Shown here one piece after another: positions 11,447-62,124 of a DNA stretch of 63,231 nt. The notes beneath the pieces were generated by a model that was given only the letters and a program-made list of their open reading frames with translations, ran no database searches and was not told where the DNA came from. A program made the translations under genes and the position numbers. How positions within the stretch are numbered: position 1 is the stretch's first letter; each line of letters opens with the position of its first letter. Origin of the DNA: a virus (lineage: Duplodnaviria; Caudoviricetes); the IMG/VR virus record IMGVR_UViG_3300047388_000410, positions 1 through 63,231 of that record; one strand, 5' to 3'.

Positions 11447-13421
11447 CTTCATCTCCAGTATCCGGCAAATAATATTTACGTAATTTTCTGTCAACCTGCT
11501 GGAGATTTGCACCTTCGCCTTTCGGCGTCTTAAACGCTTTCAATCTACCAAGTGCAGTTTCTTGTTTGAACATGCAGACTTGGCGACCGTTAGTCAGCCG
11601 TTCAGCTTTAACAAATTGCGCCTCAGTATTCAATCTTCGATGACGAAGCACGAGTTTGCCAACTGTTTGTAGTAGCTCATTACCAGGGAAATTCTCCATC
11701 AGTCTCTTGACTGTGACTACATCCGTACTCACAACTTTCTGCTTCTTCTGATTCTTCCTATACTGCAACGGCAAGCGTAGCTTCTCGTATAAAAACGTCT
11801 TGAGTTTCGCCGGGCTTGGCACTTTGCCGATAATCTCGCCCTTTTTGCTGACGCCCACGATAGCCATTTCCGCCGCGCTGTTTAACGCCGCACTAATCTC
11901 TTTCGCTTCGGCTGTGACTTTTTCGTAATGGGCAGCCCGTCCTTGTTCATCACCACGAATTCCAACGCGGGACAATTCGACCAAACCCGTGTCAATAGGG
12001 GCTTCCATTTCAAGATAATATTCGTAGCGTCCTGCGCTTCTGAGCGCGGATACTCGCACATCCAACAATTCTCTTTGCACACAGTTATCGACACAGTTAT
12101 ATGCCCACAACGACTCTTTATTATGGCTCCATCTGCTAATTTCTTCTGGCGATTTCGCTTCGTGCTTCCAAAAGGGTTGACGGGTATCGAGCGATGCTTG
12201 AAACGCCAAGTCATTCCACTCTGACCATGGCCGCTGTTCGCGGTGCATTTTCATCAGGTCCCATGCGAGATGATCCAATGGCATCTGCTCAGTCGCGCAC
12301 CACCAGGCGTCGAAGGTGAAGTTTTGGCCGCCAAAATCGACGTTTGGATCAGCGTGAAACGCGGCTATCTCATTCTTGACTCTACGCCATGCGATTTCGT
12401 CTTGCCAGTATTCAATTGCCGTCGGGATACAGAGCGCGAGTTTCGCGTCCCATGAGTAGCCGATGCAGCCGAGATAGGCTTCTTCGGAGACTTTGACGCG
12501 GCGGGGTTTTGACAACTGCGGAAGGTATCCAGTGCAAGCACATCTAGCTTTACCGCGTAAGCCTTTGCACGACGACGGCATAATTTCATTATCTTTTCGT
12601 AAGACTTCCAAGTCATGCCATCGGATATTGTGATTGCACGTCCTACATTTTCCATTTGCGGCTGTGCTTTCTTTTTGCCTCGTCTCATATTCCACCTTAT
12701 ACGGCGTCTCAACATCCAAGCTGCACGCTAGCCGTTCAGTAAATATTTCGCCGTCTTTCCGCTTCTCGGCTTCGGCTCTTGCCCATCGCATCCATTCGAT
12801 TGCTTCAGCCGCGCTTGGCGCGATGATCTTTGTGCGCTCGGGCAAGCGCAACTCTCGAAACTGTCCATCCGCCGCTATGCGCTGCCAATCCATCTGCAAC
12901 GCCCATTCGAGGCTTATGTCGCCATAAAATGTTGAATTAGGGTGAACGCTCGATATCACCTTGATTTGCCGCCCGCGCCGATCCTGATAGCTGAGAATGC
13001 TGCCTCGCCATTCCTTCGTACCAGGGCGATCATACTTGCCATCCTTATTATGAAAACTGACGCGACCATTACCCGTAAGCGCATAAAGCGCATACGAGTA
13101 GTTGGTCATTCCGTTTCCAAGCGGGACTATGACATATGGGTCTTCAAGCTGCGCTAGCCGCTCATGCAACCGATCCATCGCAGCGCGCATTTCGGCTTCA
13201 GGAATTGAATTGATATTCTGCGGCTGACCCAAATCCCAACACGAAGTTATGTAGAAGTCGCTGCGGTTTAGTCCCGCCGCTTTCCACCACGGTTGCAACT
13301 TATCGCTGTACGCTGGCCCGACCATTGGGCGCCCGTAGGTTTGCTCCCAATGTCCCCAAGCGTCGATAACCAGCACGAAGCGTGCTGATCTTGAGCCTTC
13401 GTCTTTATTTAACGACAACAT
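11436..13421 (-). CDS. Family A DNA polymerase, N-terminal half: UDG-like domain, 3'-5' exonuclease and thumb
   Basis: UDG-like: G..E..GRPMVG, VIVPLGN, WRGSIL, VHP. Exonuclease: ExoI DVET, ExoII QNFTFD, ExoIII YNCVD. Thumb: SPAKLKTFLYEKL. Ends with GRL..ANLQQ..LRKYYLPD. Confidence 0.85.
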   Translation of the reverse strand: MLSLNKDEGSRSARFVLVIDAWGHWEQTYGRPMVGPAYSDKLQPWWKAAGLNRSDFYITSCWDLGQPQNINSIPEAEMRAAMDRLHERLAQLEDPYVIVPLGNGMTNYSYALYALTGNGRVSFHNKDGKYDRPGTKEWRGSILSYQDRRGRQIKVISSVHPNSTFYGDISLEWALQMDWQRIAADGQFRELRLPERTKIIAPSAAEAIEWMRWARAEAEKRKDGEIFTERLACSLDVETPYKVEYETRQKESTAANGKCRTCNHNIRWHDLEVLRKDNEIMPSSCKGLRGKARCACTGYLPQLSKPRRVKVSEEAYLGCIGYSWDAKLALCIPTAIEYWQDEIAWRRVKNEIAAFHADPNVDFGGQNFTFDAWWCATEQMPLDHLAWDLMKMHREQRPWSEWNDLAFQASLDTRQPFWKHEAKSPEEISRWSHNKESLWAYNCVDNCVQRELLDVRVSALRSAGRYEYYLEMEAPIDTGLVELSRVGIRGDEQGRAAHYEKVTAEAKEISAALNSAAEMAIVGVSKKGEIIGKVPSPAKLKTFLYEKLRLPLQYRKNQKKQKVVSTDVVTVKRLMENFPGNELLQTVGKLVLRHRRLNTEAQFVKAERLTNGRQVCMFKQETALGRLKAFKTPKGEGANLQQVDRKLRKYYLPDTGDEDAV

Positions 13422-13524
13422 GCGCGAAATAATGATGCAATAGTAATAATAAATGCAAATAAGCAAATTCCATCAAGTTCATCGCCAATACGATGAAGCT
13501 CTTTTACGACGTCACAAGGATTAA

Positions 13525-19783: not shown

Positions 19784-20251
19784 CTAGAACGCGCCTACCG
19801 CTGATCCACTAAACGGCACGAGTACGCGGCCATGATAATTCGGCTTCGGGCACTTCACCATCACCACACCGTGCTTCTTCACGAGCCGGCAAGGAATGTA
19901 ATCAGGTTGCGCCGGGCACGGATTCACAACCGTCACGGTCGGCTGATTGCCCTCGCATACGCACGTCACGGGCGGGCACACGCCGCCACCGGGCAGCGTG
20001 GTCGTAGTCGTCGTCCCATTATCACACATACACACAGCACCATTTGCACATGTACCTGTTGTGCTCCCCTGCGGACAACTACACGGACCATTATCCGCCG
20101 CACATCCCTTACCCTGCGGCGGCGGATCAATCGCTGGACAGCACGCCACACCGTCATAATGGCGATCTGCCGTGCACTGTGGCTGGTCAGCGCGGCAAAT
20201 CGCCACGCTGCCGATTACGAAACACATCCCAACAATAAGCTTAATATTCAT
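19784..20251 (-). CDS. Secreted Cys-rich protein with poly-Thr linker
   Basis: Signal peptide MNIKLIVGMCFVIGSVAICRA; many Cys; TCANG and TTTTTTLP. Confidence 0.7.
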   Translation of the reverse strand: MNIKLIVGMCFVIGSVAICRADQPQCTADRHYDGVACCPAIDPPPQGKGCAADNGPCSCPQGSTTGTCANGAVCMCDNGTTTTTTLPGGGVCPPVTCVCEGNQPTVTVVNPCPAQPDYIPCRLVKKHGVVMVKCPKPNYHGRVLVPFSGSAVGAF

Positions 20252-20771
20252 TTTCCCATCTTTCCTCTTCAAGTTTGTCTTGATACACTTCTTTCTCTAC
20301 TCCCTCTAGCAATTCTTCCCGTCTCTTTGCGTATCCCTTCAGCTTGGCGATAACCTCCTTTTTTGTACAATCAAAATCCAGAAATACATCATATGCTTCG
20401 TTATAACTCAGCCCAAAAAACGCGGCCCCGGCGTTTTGGCCTTCAGCGTCATTAAAGTAAATATTCGCTTGATATGCCTGCGGCATTCCTTCGCCGTAAT
20501 AAAACCCATTATCATCATAATTCGTCGTATCCCATACCATCTTCAGCCCTGCGCGCCTAAACCCCTTATCCATCGCTGCATGCCCTAGTGCACATGCCGC
20601 TGTACCACAAAAATTTGCCTCCTTTTCGGGGTTATGATCTAGCGCGTGTCTGCCCCATGTAGTCATATCAAACTTCTTACCCTTCACCGGCCTAAACTTC
20701 GTCAAAATATCCGCCAGCTTCAAAAGCCGTCGCGTGTGAAGCCGCTGGGTTCGTTTATCGACTGTTGCCAT
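20241..20771 (-). CDS. Conserved phage hypothetical protein
   Basis: FDM..W...CGTAACALGHA...A..FFGL....A..F; GGAGG RBS. Confidence 0.75.
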   Translation of the reverse strand: MATVDKRTQRLHTRRLLKLADILTKFRPVKGKKFDMTTWGRHALDHNPEKEANFCGTAACALGHAAMDKGFRRAGLKMVWDTTNYDDNGFYYGEGMPQAYQANIYFNDAEGQNAGAAFFGLSYNEAYDVFLDFDCTKKEVIAKLKGYAKRREELLEGVEKEVYQDKLEEERWENEY

Positions 20772-22171: not shown

Positions 22172-22379
22172 GATTACATGGTCCTAGATGCACACGCGGC
22201 GTCCAGCGCTCGATGAAACTCGTTACGCGCCACTTGCACCGCTGCCACCGCGTCGGCGGCTTCGTCGGAAACATTTCAAACCGCTTATTCGATTTACAAG
22301 CCTCTTCGTACAACGCTTTCGCTAAATAATCATTGCGCAAAAAATCCGGCGGGCCATTCCAGCTAATTGCCATATACAA
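22155..22379 (-). CDS. Hypothetical protein
   Basis: GAGGAG RBS; coupled ORF. Confidence 0.45.
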   Translation of the reverse strand: MYMAISWNGPPDFLRNDYLAKALYEEACKSNKRFEMFPTKPPTRWQRCKWRVTSFIERWTPRVHLGPCNHDDCY

Positions 22380-22749
22380 TCCGCTCCTCTATCACCACGC
22401 GCTCTCCGGTACTATACACCACGCTCTTAAACCCCGCAAGCTGCAACATGCTATAGCATACGCTGCATGGGCGGCTCATAGCGAGTAGCCCTGTTTTGGT
22501 TAGGCGCACCACTATCATCGTCGCCCCTCGCGTCTCGTCACTTGTCATATGCAACAGCGCGTCTAACTCCGCGTGTATGCGTTGCCAGGCTGTTTGCGCT
22601 TTTGGGTGCGTTCGCATTTGATTGTAGCCTTTACTAAGTAGCTTATTCCCCTTTACAATCAAAGCTCCGACTCGCATATGATGCGTTGAACGGCTAGCCG
22701 TTCGTATCGCCAGATTTAGAAAGCGTATTCTTCTGGCTCCAAGCGTCAA
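22363..22749 (-). CDS. Cytidine/dCMP deaminase-family protein
   Basis: VGALIV, GYN, HAE..AL, SRPCSVC zinc motif; probable TTG start at 22749. Confidence 0.85.
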   Translation of the reverse strand: MTLGARRIRFLNLAIRTASRSTHHMRVGALIVKGNKLLSKGYNQMRTHPKAQTAWQRIHAELDALLHMTSDETRGATMIVVRLTKTGLLAMSRPCSVCYSMLQLAGFKSVVYSTGERVVIEERIVYGN

Positions 22750-23245
22750 GATACTCGGCTGCACAGCGCAATACGGCTGTACTATCTCTGAACATGCCAA
22801 GTCCAACATTGCATTGTCCACAAAGCAATCCTCGATGTTTGTTAGTGAAGTGGTCATGGTCAATAGACCAATCTTTTTTATTCCCCGGATTTGTAGTACC
22901 ACATACCGCACATTTGTATCCTTGTGCATGTATAATAGAATCAAACTCTGTTACTGTTATACCGCGCTTTTTGCATCTGCGCCTTTTATCGTACAAAAAA
23001 AGTACCTGCGGATTTTCACGTCTCATCTTTTCACGCCACAGTCGACCTTTGAGAGCAAACTTTTCTTTGAATTTCTCATAGTGCCGCTTCATTACTACTT
23101 TACGTTTTACAGGGTTTGGCGGAGTAGAATTTTGACATGTTTTGCAGCGTGATTGTGGACCGTTTGCCCTGTCTCGTCGTTTATGGAAATCGGTATGCGG
23201 CTTAACTATGCCACATTTAGGGCATTTTTTTGTCAGGAGTGTCAC
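22694..23245 (-). CDS. Endonuclease VII-domain homing endonuclease
   Basis: N-terminal CPKC..CKTC; CAVCG..IDHDH...HRGLLCGQCNVGLG.F.D. Confidence 0.9.
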   Translation of the reverse strand: MTLLTKKCPKCGIVKPHTDFHKRRDRANGPQSRCKTCQNSTPPNPVKRKVVMKRHYEKFKEKFALKGRLWREKMRRENPQVLFLYDKRRRCKKRGITVTEFDSIIHAQGYKCAVCGTTNPGNKKDWSIDHDHFTNKHRGLLCGQCNVGLGMFRDSTAVLRCAAEYLDAWSQKNTLSKSGDTNG

Positions 23246-27165: not shown

Positions 27166-27459
27166 ATGATGGCAAATGGTGATTGTACGGGGTTTGCGCC
27201 GGGCGGGTACGTACCCGTGACAGTGACATATCCACAGCCGCCGCCCGCCGTTTGCCCCGATTGCGGGCGATGTAGGACGTGCGGGCAGCCTGGGCCGCAG
27301 ACTATGCCGGCGCCTATCACGCCTATTCACGTTTGGCCGACGTGGACCAGCAATCCAACGAATGCGGAAATATTCTGGAACAGTAAAAACGGCAATACGA
27401 CGGGATATAATGGTATCTCACTCACCATGTCAGATGCGCTAGCCGGCGAAGTGCGATAA
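27166..27459 (+). CDS. Hypothetical protein with CPDCGRC..CG motif
   Basis: GAGGAG RBS. Confidence 0.55.
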   Translation: MMANGDCTGFAPGGYVPVTVTYPQPPPAVCPDCGRCRTCGQPGPQTMPAPITPIHVWPTWTSNPTNAEIFWNSKNGNTTGYNGISLTMSDALAGEVR

Positions 27460-27716
27460 TGCGCCATATTACAACCGGCTTTATTATCGGCTTTTGGGCC
27501 ATCGTGTTGATGCTATGGCTTACGGCGCTTCACGGCTGCGCTCCGCAGCAACAGTGTTATGCGATTCAGGGTGTAATTGATGGCTCAAATGTGGCGATAT
27601 TGTTTAATAATTGTACCGGGAAGTTTGATTTGGTACCGATTCCGGGGATGAAAACGACGCCTGATCCGGTGTCGAGTACGCCAAAGCGAGAGTCATCGCG
27701 TCAGCCGGGGGTGTAA
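27459..27716 (+). CDS. Putative lipoprotein
   Basis: Hydrophobic leader followed by an LHGC lipobox-like motif. Confidence 0.55.
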   Translation: MRHITTGFIIGFWAIVLMLWLTALHGCAPQQQCYAIQGVIDGSNVAILFNNCTGKFDLVPIPGMKTTPDPVSSTPKRESSRQPGV

Positions 27717-28644: not shown

Positions 28645-29058
28645 ATGAAACGCAGCATCATCAAAGCGATGCTTCAGCGCCAGGAGGGATTTAAGGCGGA
28701 GTTGTATAAGGATACGAACAATAAATGGACGATAGGGTATGGCAGGTGCCTCGAAACGAATCCACTAACAGAAGCCGAAGCGGAGTTTTTGCTTGATAGC
28801 GATATCACGCGCATATGGCAGCTTTTGACGACGAAGCTGATTTTCTTCGGCGGGTTAAGCGACTCAAGGCAGCATGTACTTATTTCTATGACTTACAACT
28901 TGGGGATGAACGGATTGATGGGGTTCAAGAAGATGCTAGCAGCGGCCGAAGCGGCAAACTTCAACGCCGCCGCGAACGAAATGCTAGATTCAACTTGGGC
29001 AAAACAAGTAGGGGTGCGCGCTAAAGAATTGGCAGAAATGATGAGGAGTGGAATTTAA
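28645..29058 (+). CDS. Endolysin, T4-lysozyme-like (GH24)
   Basis: EG....YKDT...WTIGYGR, M.YNLG..G...FKKM, AA.EMLDS.WAKQVG.RA..L. Confidence 0.9.
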   Translation: MKRSIIKAMLQRQEGFKAELYKDTNNKWTIGYGRCLETNPLTEAEAEFLLDSDITRIWQLLTTKLIFFGGLSDSRQHVLISMTYNLGMNGLMGFKKMLAAAEAANFNAAANEMLDSTWAKQVGVRAKELAEMMRSGI

Positions 29059-29528
29059 TGCCAAGATATGGTACGATGCCTGAATGGCATAAGCAAAAAA
29101 TTGCAGCAGCAGTTTCAAAGGCGTCAAAAGGAATTCAGAGAATTGTAAAACCACAAATTAGAACAGCACCAACAGAGAAGCCAAATTTTCGTGATCTAGT
29201 TTTAGCTGCCGGATGGTATGAAGGTGAAGGGACTGTGCGTACTGACAAAGGACGGATTCAAGTCGGTATTGCACAATCTGATGAATGGATGCCAAACAGA
29301 TTAAAGGCGCTTTTTGGAGGAAGTATATACATTCTACCGCCTGGATATATGAAGCAACATTTCACCAAGGAATATAATATTAAGGAAATGCGTCGTTGGC
29401 AATTAACAGGTGTCAGAGCGCGCGGTTTTCTTATGACAATTTATCCGTTTTGTTCGCCGCGTCGTCAAACGCAAATTAAAACGGCTCTTGATAGTTGGCG
29501 ACAAACAAATTATAAGGTTGCAGCATAA
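29058..29528 (+). CDS. LAGLIDADG homing endonuclease
   Basis: AAGWYEGEGTV; FGGSI; W...G..ARGFL..IYP..S.RR..QI. Confidence 0.8.
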   Translation: MPRYGTMPEWHKQKIAAAVSKASKGIQRIVKPQIRTAPTEKPNFRDLVLAAGWYEGEGTVRTDKGRIQVGIAQSDEWMPNRLKALFGGSIYILPPGYMKQHFTKEYNIKEMRRWQLTGVRARGFLMTIYPFCSPRRQTQIKTALDSWRQTNYKVAA

Positions 29529-29692
29529 TGCGACGTGATAATGATTTTACTAAAACCGTATTACGAAATGTCGCTACGGCAGTAGTTGTTGCGCTGTTAG
29601 GCGGCGCGGTTAAATTATATCTCGATGTGCAAGAGCTAAAGGCGAGATTTGAATATGTAAACGGCAGCGGTTGGACGGTGCCGAAACGATAA
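29528..29692 (+). CDS. Small single-TM protein (lysis-associated candidate)
   Basis: Hand-translated MRRDND..VATAVVVALLGGAVKLYL; TAATG coupling. Confidence 0.55.
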   Translation: MRRDNDFTKTVLRNVATAVVVALLGGAVKLYLDVQELKARFEYVNGSGWTVPKR

Positions 29693-37399: not shown

Positions 37400-37939
37400 A
37401 TGGATTTAGCTGAAGCTGCATCCCAAGCCCGACAGCGGCAGCAAGAAGACGCTGCTCGTATGAAAAGTGCTGCAAAAAGTCCTCTCGCTTCAACTGGCGG
37501 TAAGGGCTTTCAGCGCGGAACGGGTGTGAGCGAAAAAGCAAATGAATACGTGCCATCAGCACCGAAAACTGCCGCCGATATGGGCGGCGCGCAAGACACA
37601 GGCGACGCGCCCGTTGCGTATGGGCAGGATAGTTTGAATTATCTTGGGCATATGGCGGGGGATAACGTTACGACCGAAGGACATAACAACGTACCGCTGA
37701 CAGGGCAACAGGGATTTGGAATGATCGGTAGTTTGAGCCCGTTAAACGATACGCGAGACTACTTAGGCCATATGGCCGGAAACGACGTTACCGCAATCGG
37801 CCACAACCCCGGTGTCAAGGGCACGCTAGAAGAATACAAGGCTGGTACGCTACATAGTGGAAGCAAAACCGGCCCGATTGTCAAGAACCGCAAACAGGCT
37901 ATCGCAATTGGTTTGAGTCAGGAACGAAGAGGAAAATAG
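37400..37939 (+). CDS. DUF6496-containing protein
   Basis: C-terminal EYKAGTLHSGSKTGPIVKNRKQAIAIGLSQ; internal YLGHMAG repeat. Confidence 0.75.
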   Translation: MDLAEAASQARQRQQEDAARMKSAAKSPLASTGGKGFQRGTGVSEKANEYVPSAPKTAADMGGAQDTGDAPVAYGQDSLNYLGHMAGDNVTTEGHNNVPLTGQQGFGMIGSLSPLNDTRDYLGHMAGNDVTAIGHNPGVKGTLEEYKAGTLHSGSKTGPIVKNRKQAIAIGLSQERRGK

Positions 37940-38265
37940 TGGCCGATTTGACCGCAGAAGATGTTTCGTATTCAATTATACGAGAACGCATTACTGAAAC
38001 GCAAGGTCGGTACGAAAATATTGTTGATATTACATTTGGTGACGGTGTTAAAACTGTCCCTGCGGACGGTTTACCACTTACTCCGTCTTTGTTAGGATTA
38101 CCAAACGGCGTAATTGAAGTTATAATTATTTTTGGCACAGATTCACAATCTACATTTATAACTTTAATGCCTGCTATTTTTAATATAAATAAAAATACAC
38201 TATTTTTACAAGGTAATCAAATGCCTGTTCTAAGTACATTTCGTTTATTTATTATTGGATATTAA
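37939..38265 (+). CDS. Virion structural protein, paralog of 42927-43268
   Basis: MADLT..DV.Y....RY.N.V...FGD...TVPA.G.PL...LG.P...GY. Confidence 0.7.
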   Translation: MADLTAEDVSYSIIRERITETQGRYENIVDITFGDGVKTVPADGLPLTPSLLGLPNGVIEVIIIFGTDSQSTFITLMPAIFNINKNTLFLQGNQMPVLSTFRLFIIGY

Positions 38266-40826: not shown

Positions 40827-41345
40827 ATGATTAATACCGCTACAGTTACTCAGCTAAACCCTTCAACCAAGCGCTGTTATAAGTGTGAGGAGACGAAGGC
40901 AACTACAGACTTTGGCAAGGATAGCAGCCGAGCCGATGGATTGAATCCGCTTTGTAAGCCGTGTAATAAGACTAAGCATACTAAGTTTAGGGCGGAGAAT
41001 CGTGAGGCTGTTAGAGCGTCATATGCAAAATGGTATGCAAAACCTGAAAACAAAGCAAAGGTACACTATAAGACTGCTAAGCATAATCAAGAACGCGCCG
41101 ATCTTCTAATTGATCGTTTTAAGTCTGCGCCTTGTTTTGATTGCAAACAGTCGTTTCCGACGTGCTGTATGGATTTTGACCACAGGCCCGGAGTTGACAA
41201 GGTATTTGAGCTAAATTACCGAGCCATGAAGTCATTTAGCCTTGATTCGATTATTGAAGAAATTGCGAAATGTGATTTGGTCTGTTCCAACTGCCATCGC
41301 ATTCGCACGAAAACACGTAATCAGGTTGGAAGGAGAAGCTACTAG
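40827..41345 (+). CDS. HNH-like endonuclease
   Basis: CYKC..CKPC; PCFDC..F...MDFDH...EEIAKCDLVCSNCHRIRT. Confidence 0.85.
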   Translation: MINTATVTQLNPSTKRCYKCEETKATTDFGKDSSRADGLNPLCKPCNKTKHTKFRAENREAVRASYAKWYAKPENKAKVHYKTAKHNQERADLLIDRFKSAPCFDCKQSFPTCCMDFDHRPGVDKVFELNYRAMKSFSLDSIIEEIAKCDLVCSNCHRIRTKTRNQVGRRSY

Positions 41346-41377
41346 CCAAATAGCTAGTTAGCAATTTAGGAGACTAC

Positions 41378-42337
41378 ATGGCAACTGGAATGTCTTGGAC
41401 TTTCGATGTGCCCGCGGGCGTGGCTAAAAACCATGCTTTATCCGAAGAATACTTCAAGCAGGCCATCGCCCGCACGCGCTTTTTCGAGCACGTCAGCATT
41501 AAGCCCGCCTTCGGCAAAAAGCAGGGCGAGAGCGTAACGATTCCTCTCGTGCCGACTCTGGCTGAACCGGCTTCGGCCCAGCTTAGCGAGAATAGCAATA
41601 TTCCCGAGCTACCGTTTAACTACAAGGTACAGACGGTCGTGGTTAAGGAATTCGGTCAGGCGGTGCCGTATAGCGGACTGCTTGAAGACCTTGACCATTA
41701 TGATCCGGAAGACTGGATTTCGCAGCGCCTTGTGGATCAGCAGAAGCTAGTGCTGGATGCGACGGCCGCAGCCGCATTCAAGACAGCCGCAACGGTTATG
41801 ACGCCGGTTTCGAGCGCAGTGGTCAGCACGGCCACTAACGGCTCACCGGGCGCGGTCGCCGGTAGCAACATCAACTTCTTCCTCATCGAGACGGCGAGAG
41901 ATTATCTCGTCGGCACTCTACTCGCGCCGGGCGTTAAGGACGAAACCGATTATGTTTGCATCGGCAACACGTTCGGCCTTCGTGGTATTAAGCGCGATCC
42001 GCTATTCATTGGCTGGGCGGCTTACAAGGACCCCGAGCGCAAGTGGAACGGCGAAGTGGGGATGATTGAAGATACCACGTTCGTTGAGTCCAACCACGCC
42101 ACCGCGCTAACGTCTACATGGACGCAGGCGGGGAGCGGGGTACTCGGTGAAGCGGTGATGTTTGGTCGTGAGGCGGTTGCATTCGCGGAGGCCGTTACGC
42201 CCGAGCTACGCGCCGGCATTCCTACCGATCTAGGCCGACAGCGCCTCATTGGCTGGTACGGCGTATATGGCTTCCAGCTTCTATGGTCAAGTGCCCTACC
42301 TGGTGAGGGCAAGGTTATTCACTTCGCGTCGCTGTAA
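41378..42337 (+). CDS. Major capsid protein (N4-gp56-like, HK97 fold)
   Basis: 319 aa after scaffold; GKKQGESVTIP, L.E...IP, E.G, GEVG.IE...FVES, D.GR....GWY. Confidence 0.85.
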   Translation: MATGMSWTFDVPAGVAKNHALSEEYFKQAIARTRFFEHVSIKPAFGKKQGESVTIPLVPTLAEPASAQLSENSNIPELPFNYKVQTVVVKEFGQAVPYSGLLEDLDHYDPEDWISQRLVDQQKLVLDATAAAAFKTAATVMTPVSSAVVSTATNGSPGAVAGSNINFFLIETARDYLVGTLLAPGVKDETDYVCIGNTFGLRGIKRDPLFIGWAAYKDPERKWNGEVGMIEDTTFVESNHATALTSTWTQAGSGVLGEAVMFGREAVAFAEAVTPELRAGIPTDLGRQRLIGWYGVYGFQLLWSSALPGEGKVIHFASL

Positions 42338-42364
42338 GGCAAAAAGGAATAAAGGAAAACTATC

Positions 42365-42901
42365 ATGGCACGACAGAACGGTCAGGCTACTTTCGAGACG
42401 CCTCTCAGCAACGGCGCTTTTGGCGATAACGGCGACAGCACGACTACACAGCGAGCGTTCACCGCTTGGGAGCGGATGACGGTGGTTGAGGTTGGATGTA
42501 AGGCTGAAGCAGGCGTGGCAACGACCGGTGATACGGCACTGCCGGGAGTAGCCTTTGCATACACCGTATCAAAGCGCACGGGTGGCGATGTTGGGAACGA
42601 TGTTGTTATTCCTGTCTTCACGGCGGCTTTTGCGGCCGAGGGCGGAGTAGGCGGTGATCCGAGCGTTAATGGCTTCGATAACGCAAACCAGATTCCTAAC
42701 GGGATTATCACGAACACGCTTGGACTGCTCACAGGCGGAAAGTGCCTCAGAGCGTATACGGAAGTGACGCTTGACAAGGGCGATCAGCTTGTGTTTAAAG
42801 TTACAAGCGCAGGGACTGCGGGCAGCAAGGTTGTGTTTTATGCCAAGACGTATCTCGATGGCGCGGGTCTGGTCGAAGCGGCTGACGTTGATAGCAACTA
42901 A
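42365..42901 (+). CDS. Putative capsid decoration/minor capsid protein
   Basis: Directly after the MCP; beta-rich; L.KGD.L.F.VT. Confidence 0.6.
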   Translation: MARQNGQATFETPLSNGAFGDNGDSTTTQRAFTAWERMTVVEVGCKAEAGVATTGDTALPGVAFAYTVSKRTGGDVGNDVVIPVFTAAFAAEGGVGGDPSVNGFDNANQIPNGIITNTLGLLTGGKCLRAYTEVTLDKGDQLVFKVTSAGTAGSKVVFYAKTYLDGAGLVEAADVDSN

Positions 42902-42926
42902 CGTAATGTCGGAAAAGGAGTGGTAA

Positions 42927-43268
42927 ATGGCTGACATTACGAAAGACGACGTAATATACGTCATCGAACCATATCCCAAGGGTTCACTGCTTACCGATAA
43001 GCCTCCGCGGTATAGTAATCTCGTAAGCGTATCGTTCGGAGACAGCGCGCTAACGGTTCCGGCAACGGGTATTCCGCTCAGCGGCATCGGGCTTGGCTTT
43101 CCAGAAGATCAGGTAGAGTATGTGATTGTAATTGACTCGACTGATGCGGGAAGCGTGTATTTTACCTACGATTCGACTAATAATAGTTTGAAGTCGGCAG
43201 ATACGAATTATGATAGCGGCTCTGCGCCTCCTGCAACGACACTAGTTGTTCTTGCTCGCGGGTATTAA
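42927..43268 (+). CDS. Virion structural protein, paralog of 37939-38265
   Basis: Shared motifs with 37939; AGGAG RBS. Confidence 0.7.
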   Translation: MADITKDDVIYVIEPYPKGSLLTDKPPRYSNLVSVSFGDSALTVPATGIPLSGIGLGFPEDQVEYVIVIDSTDAGSVYFTYDSTNNSLKSADTNYDSGSAPPATTLVVLARGY

Positions 43269-44341
43269 TGAAGAAAATTCTTCTAACGTTTGCAATTTCG
43301 CTGCTTTTGTTTGGCAAAGCATTTGCGCAAACAACCACGACCACTACGCTTCCGACGTGCGCGAATGGCGGTATCAAGTGTGGAAAACAATGCCCAACTG
43401 GCGGTGCGAGTTGCAACCCTAGTGGCGGGCAGCTTTATACCGGCATGTGCGTTGGCAATTCGCTGCAGGGCGAGTGCCAATATGTCGCATGCAGCGGTGG
43501 CGCGAAATGCGTAAGCACTCCATTCGGCAAGCACGGTTGCCTTGGTGATAGTGAATGCAAGCCAGGAGAAGCGTGTATTAGTGATAGCGGCATTGAAGCC
43601 TGCGGTACGGGTTTTAGCGTATGTATGCAGTTATGCCCGGTTTCGACAACCACGACCACTACGACTACTACAACGACAATTAGTAGCACGACGACGACTT
43701 CGGCTCCGTCAACTACGACCACGACTGTACCGATTGGTTCGCTGGGTAATTACGGCGTTGTGGCTTCGTCTACGATTACGAACACCGGCTTTACGGTTGT
43801 TCAGTGCAAAATGGCACTTGACCCTGGATCATCTATCACAGGCTTTCCGCCTGGCACAGATGGCGGTGAAGATATTAGCAATCCGGCATCGCTTCAGGCA
43901 CAGACTGACGCGACGACACTTTATAACTACCTTGCCGGGCTGTCATCTACCGCTACCGTATCTGGTGATATCGGCGGCACGACCAAAGGACCAGGCGTCT
44001 ATACCGCTTCATCTACGCTTTCAGTAACGACGGCTGATTTGACACTCGATGGTGGTGGCGATCCAAATGCGCTCTTCGTTTTCCAAATCGGCTCAACGTT
44101 TACAGTTGCAAATGGTAAGCAGATTGTACTGATTAACGGCGCGCTGGCAAAGAACGTGTATTTCCAAGTCGGCAGTAGTGCAACATATGGCACAACTTCT
44201 GTTATTCACGGAACCACGGTCGCACTAGCATCTGATACAGTAAACACCGGCGCCACGGTTATCGGGCGACTTATCGCACGAACCGGCGCAGTAACGCTCG
44301 ATGACAACGCAGTAACATCACCAACAGGCACTTGCCCATAA
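43268..44341 (+). CDS. Secreted ice-binding protein (DUF3494) with 14-Cys N-domain and poly-Thr linker
   Basis: Signal peptide; STITNTG.T, PGSSITGFPPG, QAQ.D...Y..L, PGVY, LTLDGGGDPNALFVFQIGS, LINGA.AKNVYFQVGSSAT, GRL.ARTGAVTLD.N. Confidence 0.88.
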   Translation: MKKILLTFAISLLLFGKAFAQTTTTTTLPTCANGGIKCGKQCPTGGASCNPSGGQLYTGMCVGNSLQGECQYVACSGGAKCVSTPFGKHGCLGDSECKPGEACISDSGIEACGTGFSVCMQLCPVSTTTTTTTTTTTISSTTTTSAPSTTTTTVPIGSLGNYGVVASSTITNTGFTVVQCKMALDPGSSITGFPPGTDGGEDISNPASLQAQTDATTLYNYLAGLSSTATVSGDIGGTTKGPGVYTASSTLSVTTADLTLDGGGDPNALFVFQIGSTFTVANGKQIVLINGALAKNVYFQVGSSATYGTTSVIHGTTVALASDTVNTGATVIGRLIARTGAVTLDDNAVTSPTGTCP

Positions 44342-44348
44342 CGAGGGG

Positions 44349-44888
44349 ATGAAAATGGGACTTAAGAAGATTTTGCTAGCACTTGCGATTACGGTTACAC
44401 TTGCTGGCGTTGCATCTGCACAGACAACCACAACCACGACTTTGCCGACGTGCGCGAATGGTGGTATTAAATGTGGTAAGACATGCGGCGATAGTACTAG
44501 CCCTGGTGATGGGACGTGTGGTCTAAACTTCACCGGCATGTGCGTTGCGAAGTTAAACGACACGACCGGGTGTCAGTATATGCGGTGTAGCGGCAATACG
44601 CCAGCGTGTGTGTCGGGGCCGTTTATTCTTCCTGGCGCCGGATGCAGCAGCGATGTTACCTGTGGGCCGGGCGGAATTTGCGTAAGCAGCAGCGGTATGG
44701 CTGGTTGTGGTGATGGGTTTGCGCAGTGTATGACGGCATGCACGACCAGCACGACCACAACGACAACTTCTACCACGACCACGACAGCCGCGCCGACGAC
44801 TACGACTACAGCGGCTCCAACTACGACAACAACTAGCACGACAACGACTACTACTACTACGACCAGCACTACGACCACGACGGCCTAA
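44349..44888 (+). CDS. Secreted 14-Cys protein with poly-Thr tail (paralog of the IBP N-domain)
   Basis: AQTTTTTTLPTCANGGIKCGK shared with 43268; all 14 Cys align. Confidence 0.8.
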   Translation: MKMGLKKILLALAITVTLAGVASAQTTTTTTLPTCANGGIKCGKTCGDSTSPGDGTCGLNFTGMCVAKLNDTTGCQYMRCSGNTPACVSGPFILPGAGCSSDVTCGPGGICVSSSGMAGCGDGFAQCMTACTTSTTTTTTSTTTTTAAPTTTTTAAPTTTTTSTTTTTTTTTSTTTTTA

Positions 44889-44904
44889 ACGAAAGGAAGC
44901 CACG

Positions 44905-45387
44905 ATGGCAACATTAAGAGAAGTTGAGGAACGAGACAGCAAGGGTAACACGATTCGCGTGAATCCGTCTGTCACGTTCAAAGCCGATCAAAACGAGCGC
45001 ATTATCGCCGGTCGGCATGACTTTCGGCTTGTGCCGAACGAGATGTACCATACGCCAGTTACCGCGCAGGTACAAAACGGCAAGATTCTCTTTTTCGAGG
45101 GCACTCCTGATACGACTAATAGCCGCCGCGCAGCGAAGGAAATCAAGCAGTCTGAAGTGCCGCCGTATATTATCGAAATGCTGAAGAAGAACCCGATTCG
45201 AGTACGTGAAGCGCGGCCGACGGTATATGAAGTCAAGATCGCGACCATTGGTGACGTTGAAGTGACGCAGACAGAAGAACTAACGCCCGACGCAAGTGGC
45301 AACGTCAACATTGAGCCCGTTGCGCCGAAGCTAACCCGCGCTCCTAAGCCCCAGCCCTATCACGTCGAGGCCGATACTTCGGCCTAA
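44905..45387 (+). CDS. Hypothetical protein
   Basis: AAGGA RBS. Confidence 0.65.
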   Translation: MATLREVEERDSKGNTIRVNPSVTFKADQNERIIAGRHDFRLVPNEMYHTPVTAQVQNGKILFFEGTPDTTNSRRAAKEIKQSEVPPYIIEMLKKNPIRVREARPTVYEVKIATIGDVEVTQTEELTPDASGNVNIEPVAPKLTRAPKPQPYHVEADTSA

Positions 45388-45396
45388 AGGCTTATC

Positions 45397-45744
45397 GTGG
45401 CGACGGTCGCACTCAAGTCTAACCACGTCCAGCATAGCGTTCTTCAGTCGCTTTGGACGATGGGCAGCGGGGATACCGGCGTACCCGATCAACTGTCACG
45501 CTATCCTAATCATAGTGTGCAGATGACGGGGACGTTTGGTGGCGCTACTGTTGTGCTTCAGGGCAGCGATGATGGTATAACGTGGTTTACGTTGCATGAT
45601 GTGAGTGGTGCGGATATCAGCCGCACGTCGAATGGGCGTTTTGACACGATTGCTATTGTACCGCAGCACATTCGCCCGTCTAGCACGAGCGGCAGCGGAG
45701 TGTCAGTTAAGGTTATCATCACGAGTCGGAGTTTCGGGCGTTAA
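45397..45744 (+). CDS. Small beta-sandwich virion protein
   Basis: SVQ.TGTFGGATV.LQGS.DG.TW..L....IRP. Confidence 0.7.
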   Translation: MATVALKSNHVQHSVLQSLWTMGSGDTGVPDQLSRYPNHSVQMTGTFGGATVVLQGSDDGITWFTLHDVSGADISRTSNGRFDTIAIVPQHIRPSSTSGSGVSVKVIITSRSFGR

Positions 45745-46290
45745 ATGGCAAACGACATGACAACCGAAGAAGTCATTGCGCTTGGTAAGGCGCTTGGGCG
45801 GCAGTTTGCCGGCGTCGCAAAACTCGGTGAAATTTGCGATAAGATTGGCGCATTAGCAGGCGGCGAGGCTGAATTACAGCGAAACGTTGATGCACTGAAA
45901 GTTGAAATAGAAGGGCATCTAAAGGAAATTGAATCACTAAAAGAGCAAAAAGCCGCTGCTCAGCAGGAGGTAAAAGAGGCTCTTGCCGCGCGGGAGGGTG
46001 CGAGGCACGCGGTAAGCGATGCGGCTGTTCGGCAGAAAGAAGCCGAAGCAAAGATAGCTGCGATAAACGAAGAACACGCAAAAACCGTTGCTACGGCGCA
46101 AATTCAAAAAGACGGCATGCATAATCAGATAACCGAAATGCATACTCGTATACAGAAGATTGAAGCCGATCATAAAGCGCGTGTTGATGCGCTGAAAACC
46201 GAACAGGCAAATATTGCCGAAAAAATTGCCAGTCTCAAAGATTATCACGATTCTTTTAAGTCCCGTATCGCCCCGCTCTTGACGGCCTAA
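45745..46290 (+). CDS. Coiled-coil protein
   Basis: Long heptad pattern. Confidence 0.65.
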   Translation: MANDMTTEEVIALGKALGRQFAGVAKLGEICDKIGALAGGEAELQRNVDALKVEIEGHLKEIESLKEQKAAAQQEVKEALAAREGARHAVSDAAVRQKEAEAKIAAINEEHAKTVATAQIQKDGMHNQITEMHTRIQKIEADHKARVDALKTEQANIAEKIASLKDYHDSFKSRIAPLLTA

Positions 46291-46332
46291 CAGGCGTCTT
46301 GCCGCCCCGAGCGGGTTAGGGAGACGCCGTAG

Positions 46333-46572
46333 ATGGCCTTACCATACAAAGCAGAACAGCTCGTCAGCAAATTAGAAGTCGAGTACAATGTTGATGGCAA
46401 CCCCATCTACGTTGGCATTGGACCGGCTGGCGGAGCTACCAGCGATCCTGTTTGGCGGATTGCACATATTATTTATGATCTTAATGGTAATCCCATTGAG
46501 GTTATTTTTGCTGACGGGACGATTGAGAGTAATAAAATTTGGGATAACCGGGCCGGCTATTCATACAATTAG
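46333..46572 (+). CDS. Conserved small virion protein
   Basis: IYVG....G.ATS.PVWRI......A.G......WDNR..Y.Y. Confidence 0.7.
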   Translation: MALPYKAEQLVSKLEVEYNVDGNPIYVGIGPAGGATSDPVWRIAHIIYDLNGNPIEVIFADGTIESNKIWDNRAGYSYN

Positions 46573-56140: not shown

Positions 56141-56572
56141 ATGACTACATACACGGAAGTTAATGCCGACGATCACGAAACCCTAACCTTCCTATGCGAA
56201 CACGCCATAGGGAATGTTAACCTTTATCATTTACCAGTCAAGATGTGGGTCGCGAAAGACGAAACAGGCATCGTCGCGTTGCTGATGCTCAAGACCGTCC
56301 CATACCTTTCGCTCGACATGATCGTTGCGCACCCCGATTCTCGGCCCTTCATGCGCATCATCAAACTCTGGCGCATGGCCGAAGCGTGGCTCAAAGCACA
56401 AAAAGTCCCGATGGTCGCAGTATCGGTATTCAACACCCTTCAGCATTACCAATCCATCCTTCGTCGCATGGGGTTTGAGAAGATTGGTGAAGAAGCAGAT
56501 GATGACGGAAATGCAATAGAGACGATTTACGGCAAAACGTTTATCGAAGCCACGGAAAGGCTGAGTGCATAA
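56141..56572 (+). CDS. GNAT-like protein (virion-assembly acetyltransferase-like)
   Basis: WVA.D..GIV; ILRRMGFEKIG; position before the ejection genes. Confidence 0.65.
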   Translation: MTTYTEVNADDHETLTFLCEHAIGNVNLYHLPVKMWVAKDETGIVALLMLKTVPYLSLDMIVAHPDSRPFMRIIKLWRMAEAWLKAQKVPMVAVSVFNTLQHYQSILRRMGFEKIGEEADDDGNAIETIYGKTFIEATERLSA

Positions 56573-57099
56573 TGGCAACGATTCGATTCATGAAACCCGA
56601 AGACGAGCGCCCGTTGCGTAAGCTAATGATGAAATATCTCAAATCAACATACGATGAAGGCGGCGATATTCCTCCGACGCTCGAAAACGCGGCAACATCA
56701 ATACATCATGGTATCGAAGGTGCCGCGCTTGGTGATCCATGCCTTGTAGCGGAAGAGAACGGTAAGATTGTTGGTTACACTATCTGCCGCGGTATCATAA
56801 CTCCCGGCCTCACGACACGATACAAATCCATTCGCTCATGGGGCACATATGTTATTCCTGAATATCGTTGTAAAAATATTGCTACGATGCTGCTTATCAC
56901 CGCCGGGCGTGTTGCAAAAATTGCCGGCTATGACGAATTTATTGGCCTAGCACATGGTACGAATTACGAAGAAAACAGCAAACACATTGCCCGTAAAATT
57001 CGTGGCATGAAAGAAGTTGGAAGAATACTCGTTATGAAACTGACTCGGCCGGCAAAGGATGCTGAAGAGTCCGAACCGCGTAAGGATGAATTACACTAA
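56572..57099 (+). CDS. GNAT acetyltransferase
   Basis: IRF...ED, LVAEENGKIVGY, YVIPEYRCKNIAT.L. Confidence 0.8.
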   Translation: MATIRFMKPEDERPLRKLMMKYLKSTYDEGGDIPPTLENAATSIHHGIEGAALGDPCLVAEENGKIVGYTICRGIITPGLTTRYKSIRSWGTYVIPEYRCKNIATMLLITAGRVAKIAGYDEFIGLAHGTNYEENSKHIARKIRGMKEVGRILVMKLTRPAKDAEESEPRKDELH

Positions 57100-59824: not shown

Positions 59825-61942
59825 ATGGCCGACCCTACTGCGATTGATACTGTTGCTGATGCTATTGCTAACGTTGGCGAAAAAAGCAGCGGCTACGATC
59901 AAGTTGGCGTACCGGATAAATCTGGCGACCGTCCATATGGCAAATATCAGATCATGGGCAATAACATTCCCTCATGGTCTGATGAAGCCGGACTTGGTAA
60001 ACTGACACCAGACGCCTTTGTTAATAATCCTGATGCGCAAGAGCAAGTTGCTAAACATCGCATCGGCAAGTATCTCGATCAATATGGAAACGCTCGTGAT
60101 GCCGCGTCATTATGGCATAGTGGCGTACCATATGACCAAGCGGTAAACGAGAAACGGCAAGATTCGCTTGGTACGAAAACCGCAGATTACGCCACACGAG
60201 TCTCAAACGCCGCTGATACGATTGTTTCGTTGCCAGATGGTAGTGAAGTCAATTTAGGCGTCAATCCATCGCCCGAATTACGCGAACAAGTCAAAGCCAA
60301 GATACGTGAGAAATTTCCAGAATTAGGCGGTGTTCCGCAGGCTACGGAACAGCCGCCATCTGTGGAACAGCCTAAACCGCCGCCTACTGTCGAGAAACCC
60401 GCTTGGTATAGTGGCCTAGCCGATGAAGCCGGTGAGCAGTTTGCAAATGCTGTAAGTAATGCCATAGAATCAGGCAAGAGCCTTGTTCAAAAACCCGACT
60501 CCGCCGGCCAAGTCATCCACGACCTTCTCGGCCTTCTTGAACCATGGACTGTAACCGGTTCTATGACAGGTGAAGCGGCTAAAAAGGCCGCAGCAGCCGG
60601 TGGATTAGGTTCAACAGCCCAAGGTATTGCCGAAACAGGCGGTACGGTAGCCGGGGCACTCGCTACACCCGCTCCGCCGGGTTTCGGGCTCGTTTCTAAA
60701 GCCCTAGAACGCATATTAGGCGCCGCAAAGGCCACTGTACCAGAAGCCATTGCCGCGGCCCGCGCCGAAGCACCAGAAGCCGCCGCAGCGGCAGAGAGAG
60801 TCGGCGGCATCAACACTGCGCCTAGCGAGGCTACAACCGCGGCTAAAGAAGTTTTGACACCTAGCGGAGCCGCTACCGAAACCATTGGCAGCACGGCCAA
60901 GCAAACCCTAACGCAGCGTGCCAAGCAGCTTGAAACGATGGCCGGCGGGGTATATGATACCGCAGTCGAAAACGCGCAAAACGCTAATAAGGTACTCGAT
61001 CCGGCTACGAAAGAATATAAAGCCCTCACTCCTCATCTAGCCGACGTTCGTGCAAAACTTGGTACGCTGCCCGCTGAAGCCGAAGAAGCCGTTGCGAATC
61101 TTGAAGAGAAAATCAAAGCCGGCAAGCCGCTTGACCCCAATGATCTTGCCGCGTATAAAGAAGCCGTCGATACCACATTTCCTGGCAAGATGAAATCAGG
61201 CACTGAAGTACGCGACGCATTGCGTAGTATGTTTTCGTCCGAAGATCAAAAATGGGCCGAAGCGGCTGATGCGCTTTGGCGAGACGAATTACGCGGAAAG
61301 GGTATGACGCAATCTTCGCTTGGCAGTCTTGTCAAAGTCATAAAAAAATCCGACCCGACTGCGGTAGTTGAAAAGTTATTTGGCCGCGGCACAGGACCAC
61401 TTTCCGATAGCCAAGCTGCCGTTGGACGCGCGGTCATGCGGAATCTTGAATTAGACGATCCAAAAATTGCCGGACAGGTAAAAGATGCGCTATTTAATCG
61501 TGTTGTCGATTCGGCAACCGATTCAGCCGGCGCATTTAACCCGCAACAGCTTGTTGATTCATATGAAAATCTAAAGCCGCTGCATTCAGTCATCAGCACG
61601 CCTGATAAAAACGCCTTCTTTACTGTTTTGCGCAATCAGCTAGCTGAAAATGCAAAAGCTGCCGTCAAGACAAAGCCTGGCATGCTTGCGCGCATGACAG
61701 CCGAAGGCATTGCAATCGGTATTGGCGAACAAGTTGGTGCCGCTATGGGCCATCCATATCTCGGCATGGTTGCGGCGCACAAAATCTTGCGTCCCGATAA
61801 AATTGCTGAAATGCTTGCTAGCCCTAAAACAACGCGACTATTAACTCGTGCGCTTCAGACGCCGTTTGAATCAGCCGGTGCACCGATGATTATGCGAAGT
61901 CTTGATGATGCGTTGAGCGAGAAGCCAAAGAAAGCCGCCTAA
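59825..61942 (+). CDS. Large ejection protein with lysozyme-like (muralytic) N-domain
   Basis: AI...E...Y......GD..YGKYQIM..NI.SW.....P..F..NP.AQE......Y..QYG....AAS.W.SG. Confidence 0.75.
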   Translation: MADPTAIDTVADAIANVGEKSSGYDQVGVPDKSGDRPYGKYQIMGNNIPSWSDEAGLGKLTPDAFVNNPDAQEQVAKHRIGKYLDQYGNARDAASLWHSGVPYDQAVNEKRQDSLGTKTADYATRVSNAADTIVSLPDGSEVNLGVNPSPELREQVKAKIREKFPELGGVPQATEQPPSVEQPKPPPTVEKPAWYSGLADEAGEQFANAVSNAIESGKSLVQKPDSAGQVIHDLLGLLEPWTVTGSMTGEAAKKAAAAGGLGSTAQGIAETGGTVAGALATPAPPGFGLVSKALERILGAAKATVPEAIAAARAEAPEAAAAAERVGGINTAPSEATTAAKEVLTPSGAATETIGSTAKQTLTQRAKQLETMAGGVYDTAVENAQNANKVLDPATKEYKALTPHLADVRAKLGTLPAEAEEAVANLEEKIKAGKPLDPNDLAAYKEAVDTTFPGKMKSGTEVRDALRSMFSSEDQKWAEAADALWRDELRGKGMTQSSLGSLVKVIKKSDPTAVVEKLFGRGTGPLSDSQAAVGRAVMRNLELDDPKIAGQVKDALFNRVVDSATDSAGAFNPQQLVDSYENLKPLHSVISTPDKNAFFTVLRNQLAENAKAAVKTKPGMLARMTAEGIAIGIGEQVGAAMGHPYLGMVAAHKILRPDKIAEMLASPKTTRLLTRALQTPFESAGAPMIMRSLDDALSEKPKKAA

Positions 61943-62124
61943 TGCGATACCTTCTCTTACTCGCCATGTTCGCCGGCTGCGATTCCTTCACTAACGAACA
62001 TCTCGAATCGTGCCTTAACGCCTGCGAACGTGCTTATGAGCATAACGTATTGACCAGTCACGATTCACCCACCATCGTTGCCGACGACGAAGCCTGTCGC
62101 ACGCTCTGCACGAAAGGCCAATAG
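61942..62124 (+). CDS. Small lipoprotein
   Basis: MRYLLLLAMFAGC lipobox plus two CxxxC motifs. Confidence 0.6.
   Translation: MRYLLLLAMFAGCDSFTNEHLESCLNACERAYEHNVLTSHDSPTIVADDEACRTLCTKGQ

Follow-up and report, generated by a model that had tools for sequence, protein, structure and literature searches.

Most of the ice binding known in microbes is due to proteins with a DUF3494 domain (PF11999), the genes of which have a record of moving between distant organisms. The solved cellular members of the type of EfcIBP (6EIO) are single-domain proteins from icy habitats with measured activity, which have a Thr-rich segment before the domain and strands of the T-x-T or T-x-D type on one face. Other members are tethered; in SfIBP_1 from Shewanella (6BG8) a signal peptide is followed by an extender of tandem beta-sandwich domains and a distal DUF3494 domain, in line with the tethered ice-binder concept as presented in PMC9957290. 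On the viral side, the account given in PMC11515562 includes three PF11999 genes in Arctic viral contigs, which were proposed as cryoprotection auxiliary metabolic genes ('AMGs') and are uncharacterised. Here we describe a DUF3494 gene located on the plus strand (positions 43268 to 44341) of the IMG/VR virus record IMGVR_UViG_3300047388_000410 (Duplodnaviria; Caudoviricetes), a linear record estimated to be 56% complete; the whole stretch that was analysed, 63,231 nucleotides long, is referred to as the window. The explanation that we propose, and that taken as a whole we consider probable, is that the gene truly belongs to the phage, is expressed late, and codes for a modular binding protein that is exported.

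The product of this fused gene resembles the EfcIBP type in its DUF3494 fold without a capping head, in the Thr-rich segment before the domain and in the T-x-T / T-x-D type strands on the same face; unlike those proteins, it is phage-encoded, a 14-Cys module and a long Thr stalk precede its domain, it is associated with a soil-labelled run, and it is known from sequence. As in SfIBP_1 (Foldseek E 9.5e-14, TM score 0.88), a signal peptide and an extender precede a distal DUF3494 domain, but the extender is here a Thr stalk plus a Cys-rich module, and the protein falls outside the class of the tethered ice adhesins of the SfIBP_1 / MpIBP type, since it has the extender and the distal domain but no visible anchor. 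The Arctic genes are likewise on viral contigs; nevertheless, those are marine/Arctic, whereas the window gene lies inside a structural operon and is fused to a phage-specific module. The gene and its parts are as follows:

43268..44341, plus strand: fused gene, a four-part exported-type protein of 357 residues (open reading frame list, PF11999 match, second-assembly contig)
43268..43330, plus strand: predicted signal peptide, residues 1-21, MKK / hydrophobic core / AFA/Q (inspection and heuristic)
43331..43642, plus strand: 14-Cys module, residues 22-125 (Cys positions, family search, model)
43643..43726, plus strand: Thr stalk, residues 126-153, 71% Thr (composition, codons)
43757..44317, plus strand: DUF3494 / PF11999 beta-solenoid with one long helix, residues 164-350 (Pfam, AF2, Foldseek, phmmer)

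An earlier note on this DNA had claimed a complete DUF3494 domain with three characteristic motifs, placed behind a signal peptide, a 14-Cys domain and a Thr stalk, and had named a PF11999 search as one of its checks. In Pfam the domain matches the profile over its full length (positions 1-208 of 208) with an E value of 3.6e-49 and 167.7 bits, well above the cut-off of 28.7; a six-frame scan of the record, which is estimated at 56% of the genome, recovered the match at 43757-44317 (E 1.6e-51) and gave no second PF11999 match. All three motifs were located in the translation, i.e., SSATYGTTS at residues 303-311, ASDTVNTGA at 321-329 and GAVTLDDNA at 340-348. The other parts also stood: 14 cysteines lie between residues 31 and 123, with two more at 180 and 356, and the stalk that follows is encoded by mixed ACN codons. 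The N-terminus, read by eye, shows an MKK n-region, a 13-residue hydrophobic core and an A-F-A/Q site. Signal-peptide calls were made with a crude home-made heuristic plus inspection by eye; the heuristic was positive for the fused open reading frame (ORF), for its paralogue and for the orthologues on two related viral contigs, L080 and L081 (4/4), and for none of six cytoplasmic phage controls, with a predicted cut that falls a few residues before the AXA site read by eye. Inspection of the translation after the signal peptide revealed no membrane, lipid, lipobox, sortase or C-terminal sorting anchor. Judging by the predicted signal peptide, the fused protein is probably exported.

The AlphaFold2 (AF2) model of the domain, obtained with a 45-sequence alignment, consists of stacked strands and one long helix at domain residues 57-74, with a predicted local distance difference test score (pLDDT) of 95.7 and a predicted TM score (pTM) of 0.92. 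The best Foldseek match of the model is 6EIO, the Antarctic EfcIBP (E 3.3e-19, TM score 0.93, root-mean-square deviation 1.0 A, 47% identity), and DUF3494 ice-binding proteins fill all of the first 30 rows, after which come the tapirin cellulose adhesins with a probability of 0.33. A phmmer comparison with 6EIO (E 9.7e-50) gave 104 identities over 216 aligned residues, approx. 48% by hand count. The profile match and the model identify the domain as a bona fide DUF3494 domain whose nearest solved relatives are all ice-binding proteins. The B face was mapped by hand through a HMMER alignment to 7BWX and from there to the B-face segments of AnpIBP given in PMC7277481; 18 of the 20 outward positions are T/S/A/G, as mapped by sequence, and column 4 holds Thr in all five strands, which forms a threonine ladder. 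In PMC7277481 the T-x-T / T-x-D strand motif is given for EfcIBP, and a change of S153 / T156 of AnpIBP to Tyr is described as bringing the activity down to 17%; the residues that align with these two in the window protein are S303 and T306. Among the 44 other aligned homologues, which include viral-contig and unlabelled metagenome relatives, these face residues are likewise the consensus (70-100% in column 4). Because this consensus extends across homologues that include those of ordinary soil bacteria, the residues reveal an intact binding face and not which ligand it takes, and ice binding by the solenoid is, from the sequence comparison, possible.

The surroundings of the gene are those of a phage. 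The minus-strand half of the record encodes a primase/helicase, a DNA polymerase fragment, a sigma factor and a glycosyltransferase, and the plus-strand half a terminase, a portal, an HNH endonuclease, the major head protein and collagen-like tail fibres; the fused gene is flanked by the terminase, portal and capsid genes upstream and by the tail fibre genes downstream. Its closest neighbours are the following:

41378..42337, plus strand: major head protein (phrog_1357, E 1.3e-11), 92% and 86% identical in L080 and L081
42927..43268, plus strand: 113-residue gene product; its stop overlaps the start of the fused gene, and the gene is kept just before the Cys gene in relatives
44349..44888, plus strand: paralogue of 179 residues, i.e., signal peptide, 14-Cys module and long Thr tail, without DUF3494
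44905..45387, plus strand: 160-residue gene product, after the Cys gene in 3/4 relatives (by eye)

Coupling of the fused gene to genes just after the capsid gene, which the earlier note had pointed out, is seen in the last A of the upstream TAA, which is the first A of the fused-gene ATG, the capsid gene being two small genes upstream. No promoter- or terminator-like site was detected on the plus strand from 41117 to 46360, and from this and the start/stop overlap a late co-expression with the capsid genes is inferred. A second assembler produced one 7070-nt contig that spans 42850-45400 with 0 differences, at a depth of 8.42 versus 8.43 in the adjoining contig; this second assembly was made from one public run, the only one listed, which carries the habitat label 'soil metagenome' and is perhaps the source sample; no RNA data set with this DNA was listed. 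The DUF3494 part has a GC content of 0.515, the whole window one of 0.509, and the GC3 is also phage-like. With hallmark genes on both sides, a virus-like composition at a GC of 0.517 against 0.509 and agreeing assemblies, the fused gene is a bona fide viral gene, and the host chimera that had been named as a refutation did not appear when looked for in this, perhaps the same, sample.

The gene that follows is a paralogue of the fused gene (BLASTP 56% identity over 140 residues, E 2e-26), with the same Cys pattern and a Thr tail longer than the stalk of the fused protein; it has no Pfam or PHROG match. The paralogue has two in-frame ATGs six bases apart, and an upstream GAGGGG is better spaced for the second (44355). 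Alignments identify it as the orthologue of a single Cys/Thr gene of the phage's relatives. These are L080 and L081, viral contigs whose capsid proteins are 92% and 86% identical to that of the window, and L084 and L085, which are short metagenome contigs. All four carry exactly one Cys/Thr exported-type gene at the same spot and without DUF3494, placed directly after the orthologue of the 113-residue gene (4/4) and followed by that of the 160-residue gene (3/4, by eye). No PF11999 was found anywhere in the whole records of L080 and L081, both of which are fragments. The GC content of these two is 0.67 and 0.64 versus 0.51 in the window, despite the identity of the capsid proteins.

The Cys module belongs to a rare family. 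A HMMER search over 1.84 billion representatives yielded 14 proteins at E<=0.001, i.e., the window's own, 11 short proteins (75-156 residues) and two long ones matched over 20 residues only, so that the real members other than the fused protein are short; ten of the 11 short members start with a signal-peptide-like segment, as read by eye, and the eleventh is a fragment. Members of the family combine a signal peptide with a conserved Cys pattern, in which a CG-G-F/W/Y-x-x-C motif stands close to the end, and with Thr-rich stretches at one end or at both; all these traits are found here. Across the two window copies, L080 and L081, thirteen Cys columns do not vary, and the same holds for C75, C91, C97, C103, C112 and C119 in an alignment of 15 sequences. 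An alignment that joined the two domain families was set aside, given that it misaligned the Cys family and lowered its identity from 37-54% to 12-21%. The model of the module has a pLDDT of 71.5 overall and of 84-92 over residues 70-125; it found no fold match in the PDB (best Foldseek E 3.2; VIA-align 0/48,161 chains at Z>=2) and no usable match in the ESM Atlas. By these alignments, the Cys/Thr module appears as the conserved phage part and the solenoid as a lineage-specific addition. The simplest history would be a duplication followed by the gain of the solenoid, because the relatives keep one Cys gene without DUF3494 and the window has two. The earlier note missed that the Cys/Thr module is conserved, that the next gene is a paralogue and that DUF3494 is not rare in phages.

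Taken together, we suggest the following course of events. The lineage would have kept one small exported gene (signal peptide, 14-Cys module, Thr stalk) between its head and tail genes; in the window phage this gene would have been duplicated, and the upstream copy would have gained, at the end of its stalk, a DUF3494 solenoid from a clade with members on viral contigs. The fused gene would be read with the capsid genes from a late operon and would be translationally coupled to the preceding gene. The Sec pathway would carry the protein out of the cytoplasm, where the Cys module may form up to seven disulfides, and the protein would accumulate there and be released at lysis. In this arrangement the Cys module and the stalk would act as the lineage's own export-and-presentation scaffold, and the presumably flat B face of the solenoid, with its threonine ladder, would bind a periodic hydroxyl-rich surface. 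We see close to an even chance that this surface is a cell-envelope or matrix polysaccharide, bound for adhesion or for masking debris; that it is ice, with inhibition of recrystallisation around lysate and virions, is possible but doubtful, and some other ligand is unlikely.

Regarding the origin of the solenoid, a protein-database search gave 4658 matches at E<=0.001 among 8000 scored candidates, which cover approximately the C-terminal 55% of the query with a best domain identity of 65%. Among genomes, taken one per species, at least 605 relatives were confirmed of 607 candidate stretches; the best 80 of these loci are 43-53% identical and include Solirubrobacterales, Acidobacteria, Acidimicrobiia, Nocardioides, Streptomyces, Kitasatospora, Bacteroidia, Verrucomicrobia and Myxococcota. 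Since the best 80 all lie within this range and are spread over many phyla, no bacterial donor stands out. A FastTree phylogeny was calculated with 265 domains (118 metagenome proteins, 82 pieces of the 80 genome loci, 64 IMG/VR ORFs and the window) after a filter of 150 profile positions that dropped one IMG/VR ORF and one protein. The window is on a long branch within a clade of 20 (support 0.92), together with four IMG/VR members (L004, L005, L009, L010) and 15 unlabelled metagenome proteins. One of the viral members, L005 (876-1979), is a DUF3494 ORF that adjoins a serine integrase on a viral contig of 60 kb. Fifteen of the 20 clade members, L005 among them, share an N-terminal domain that is unrelated and non-secreted; this domain has approx. 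100-170 residues and a conserved CGF-x-CGCPG-like motif and is sometimes duplicated, and the members listed are L005:876-1979, P0034, P0039, P0042-P0045, P0047, P0048, P0055, P0060, P0069, P0083, P0086 and P0090.

In the earlier note, no characterised phage example of DUF3494 was known, and this agrees with what was found: tblastn against 50,697 GenBank phage records gave no match even at E 1, no PHROG family gave a match, and in BFVD the three matches at E<=0.001 (E 2.1e-16 to 1.1e-9) are all from the giant virus Hyperionvirus, i.e., the only viral entries there with a DUF3494 fold, with 23-36% identity and other architectures; the Arctic PF11999 genes are uncharacterised. The statement 'Homologs in Synechococcus phage S-SKS1', which appears in PMC11515562, was not reproduced, there being no tblastn match among the GenBank phages at E 1. 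Literature searches did not find the fused architecture or virion-embedded DUF3494 forms described.

A different picture emerged from IMG/VR. A survey with two short peptide patterns confirmed 125 stretches and retained 76 loci; once L002 and L003 had been added from a first scan there were 78 ORFs with a match, which reduce to 65 distinct ORFs, all of them above the PF11999 cut-off. PHROG or Pfam matches in the same ORF identify three tail sheath proteins, three baseplate wedge / Baseplate_J proteins and one minor tail protein. DUF3494 is inserted in the tail sheath proteins L003:7390-10203, L037:5506-7773, L052:989-3250, L016:5512-7833 and L002:1835-4552, three of which have tail-sheath PHROG matches of E 1e-29 to 1e-38; L016 and L037 are 57% identical over their full length, L002 and L003 42%, and the N-terminus of L016 is common to five or six further ORFs (by eye). 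Virions with such sheaths would be expected to display DUF3494 in many copies along the tail. In the L002 and L003 sheaths the domain occurs in two pieces, profile positions 42/62-203 and then the N-terminal coil (by eye), which looks like a circular permutation. In three giant proteins of 2326-2580 residues (L067:1192-8349, L069:1930-9669, L075:1447-8424) an N-terminal Baseplate_J / wedge region is present and DUF3494 lies far downstream.

The heuristic gave signal peptides in 11 of the 65 ORFs when all upstream starts were allowed, and approximately five are convincing (L025, L031, L033, L038, L064). L033:5923-6864 encodes a DUF3494 protein with a signal peptide and a long Pro/Ser/Thr tail, on a 42-kb record rated 100% complete, where it is placed between the portal/HNH genes and the gene of the major head protein (phrog_9953, E 4.9e-54), directly upstream of the latter; by these features L033 is a second and independent case in which an exported DUF3494 protein with a stalk is encoded next to a capsid. 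The 64 viral domains are distributed in the tree over 16 maximal all-viral clades (34, 8, 6, three pairs and ten singletons), which may change because the bacterial sampling is biased to relatives of the window. The sheath and baseplate domains belong to the same Pfam family as the window copy; nevertheless, they have no signal peptide, are placed within virion proteins and are mostly in separate all-viral clades, whereas the window copy is exported-type and in another clade. The Pfam sister family PF20597, the 'putative ice-binding-like adhesive domain', weakly matches L005. As judged from these ORFs, PF11999 is common in IMG/VR, mostly without a signal peptide and embedded in tail sheath or baseplate proteins.

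Among the readings of what the protein does, the one that survives best, somewhat short of an even chance in our estimation, is that the exported protein acts as an adhesin or a decoy towards a polysaccharide of the host envelope or the matrix. Its solenoid would be a module of the kind borne by the tail sheaths and baseplates of other phages, here released or displayed at lysis, and it would coat debris or matrix, sparing progeny from being lost on dead cells, or hold the lysate in the biofilm. It is favoured by the viral survey, where every ORF passes PF11999, several lie in sheath, baseplate and minor tail proteins, few are convincingly secreted and 34 of 64 domains fall in one all-viral clade, although these all-viral clades could break up with wider bacterial sampling. 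The phage domains sit mostly in tail sheath and baseplate proteins, a setting that hints at adhesion to a surface no less than at ice, and the adhesive name of PF20597 and the place of the tapirins next in the fold ranking point towards adhesion. Some exported lipoproteins that mask receptors, for example T5 Llp and Cor, have their genes among those of the tail. Against the reading, receptor masking usually needs early and not late expression. We know of no polysaccharide ligand demonstrated for any DUF3494 protein, and the record, 56% complete, holds no other PF11999, so that its known tail proteins are without the module.

That the protein is a true ice-binding protein, a bulk late product freed at burst that inhibits ice recrystallisation or holds material to ice and so protects virions and infected cells from freeze-thaw in soil, is a possible reading that we hold with some doubt. 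The nearest solved relatives in the structural ranking all bind ice, yet solved structures are biased towards cold organisms; S303 and T306 match the activity residues of AnpIBP and the Thr ladder is complete, but the face residues are a consensus that does not single out ice. A Nostoc protein 52% identical to EfcIBP was, in the account of PMC7783341, produced as a recombinant protein and treated by its authors as a working ice binder; the same source places DUF3494 proteins as far as the tropics and hot springs, and PF11999 is listed in PMC11237643 among the abundant Pfams across soils. Relatives of equal identity, 45-53%, are found in ordinary soil bacteria by the hundreds, among them Streptomyces, Kitasatospora, Nocardioides, Acidobacteria and others (at least 605 stretches), and the only habitat label seen is 'soil metagenome'. 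The order of signal peptide, stalk and distal DUF3494 recalls the bacterial tethered ice binders as presented in PMC9957290, and strong late expression next to the capsid gene would be fitting for a factor that is set free in large amounts; against this, most phage copies sit in virion proteins. Of the interpretation given in the earlier note, it has stood that the protein is phage-encoded, looks exported and is a bona fide DUF3494 protein, while the ice ligand and the freeze-thaw role are still putative. The gene is real and the observation of the earlier note holds up; its ice interpretation is plausible.

It has to be considered whether the protein is instead part of the virion, i.e., a head or neck decoration, either because the N-terminus is not a secretion signal or because the protein joins the particles after lysis. 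The position between head and tail genes, where the Cys-module orthologue is kept in 4/4 relatives, the placement of most phage DUF3494 domains in virion proteins and the L033 copy that adjoins a capsid gene would agree with it. Nevertheless, n-, h- and c-regions with an AXA site are present in both window copies, L080 and L081, as is a signal-peptide-like start in nearly all short members of the Cys family; the 14 conserved cysteines and Thr-rich stalks mark extracytoplasmic proteins, and in tailed phages the assembly of heads takes place in the cytoplasm. In view of its signal peptide and its cysteines, we regard a virion role of the protein as improbable. An assembly artefact, in which a Thr-coding tract was wrongly joined to a bacterial DUF3494 gene, is hardly credible, since although low-complexity Thr-coding DNA could mislead an assembler and bacterial proteins with a Thr linker before DUF3494 exist (P0037, P0056, P0067), the phage genes on both sides would require two false joins, the second assembler gave the same sequence in one contig of even depth, the GC and GC3 are phage-like and the Thr tract has mixed codons.

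Several points weigh against the explanation of a late phage gene for an exported binding protein. An exported protein amid virion genes is unusual, and the position also fits a virion part. The evidence for export consists of sequence features and a home-made heuristic. A search for a host or prophage by capsid alignment (one genome per species) gave 64 pattern matches and 0 confirmed. Among the lysis genes, the window has a PF00959 lysozyme (28645-29058), a small ORF with a lipobox-like site and an ORF of 54 residues with one helix, and from these the type of host envelope could not be called firmly. As no anchor is visible, the protein may be tethered or free. The solenoid deviates from the subfamily at 8 of 69 strongly conserved columns, and near-invariant glycines of the first coil are replaced (G to C at residue 180, G to A at 183). 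The inferred order of events is unrooted, and a loss of DUF3494 from an ancestral fused gene is the alternative; a closer bacterial donor may have been missed, because the bacterial sequences of the tree were picked for their likeness to the window. Finally, the second assembly is not independent, given that the run may be the source sample.

Other features of the window are recorded here. The heuristic flagged further small ORFs, with signal-peptide-like or single-helix N-termini, at 61942-62121, 27459-27713, 19787-20272 and 29528-29692; one of them, of 60 residues and with a lipobox-like FAGC, is found at the end of the tail genes, and another, of 54 residues, is two genes after the lysozyme gene. 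The 113-residue gene product has a paralogue of 108 residues (37939-38265) approx. 5 kb upstream (34% identity, E 2e-16); comparison ruled out that the 178-residue gene after the capsid gene is a paralogue of the 179-residue gene at 37400. The HNH endonuclease gene (40827-41345; phrog_2255, E 1.1e-28) lies between a scaffold-like gene and the capsid gene, and is missing from that place in L080 and L081. The window also encodes a dCMP deaminase, a MazZ-like dATP/dGTP diphosphohydrolase N-domain (E 6.7e-28) and a 676-residue protein that contains a domain of the uracil-DNA-glycosylase (UDG) superfamily; for the diphosphohydrolase, the deaminase and the 676-residue protein the coordinates 6037-6567, 22366-22944 and 11439-13466 are listed in this order, and the three together hint at an altered nucleotide metabolism or a modified DNA. 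A PEMT/ICMT-family membrane methyltransferase-like protein is encoded among the replication genes (10386-10988) and a GNAT acetyltransferase among the tail genes (56572-57096).

What is new in this locus is the rare 14-Cys family, the gain of a solenoid on one of its two copies, the placement of this solenoid in a clade with viral members, and the PF11999 domains embedded in virion proteins. A phage lineage keeps a small, putatively exported Cys-rich family among its virion genes. The wider pattern of phage-borne DUF3494 is a more interesting lead than the single gene, and the tail-sheath insertions are ready material for structural work. A more far-reaching possibility, unlikely in our judgement, is that the sheath, baseplate and exported (window, L033) domains all bind ice as a toolkit of soil phages, which would be the first viral ice-binding system; if so, phages would be equipped with antifreeze or ice-anchoring surfaces that carry them through freeze-thaw. 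Should the phage copies have another ligand, they would provide a natural test of what the many non-polar members of the family do. Working copies, if phages have them, would give a molecular handle on the survival of viruses in frozen soil, and phages would then be candidate vectors for the spread of DUF3494 genes.

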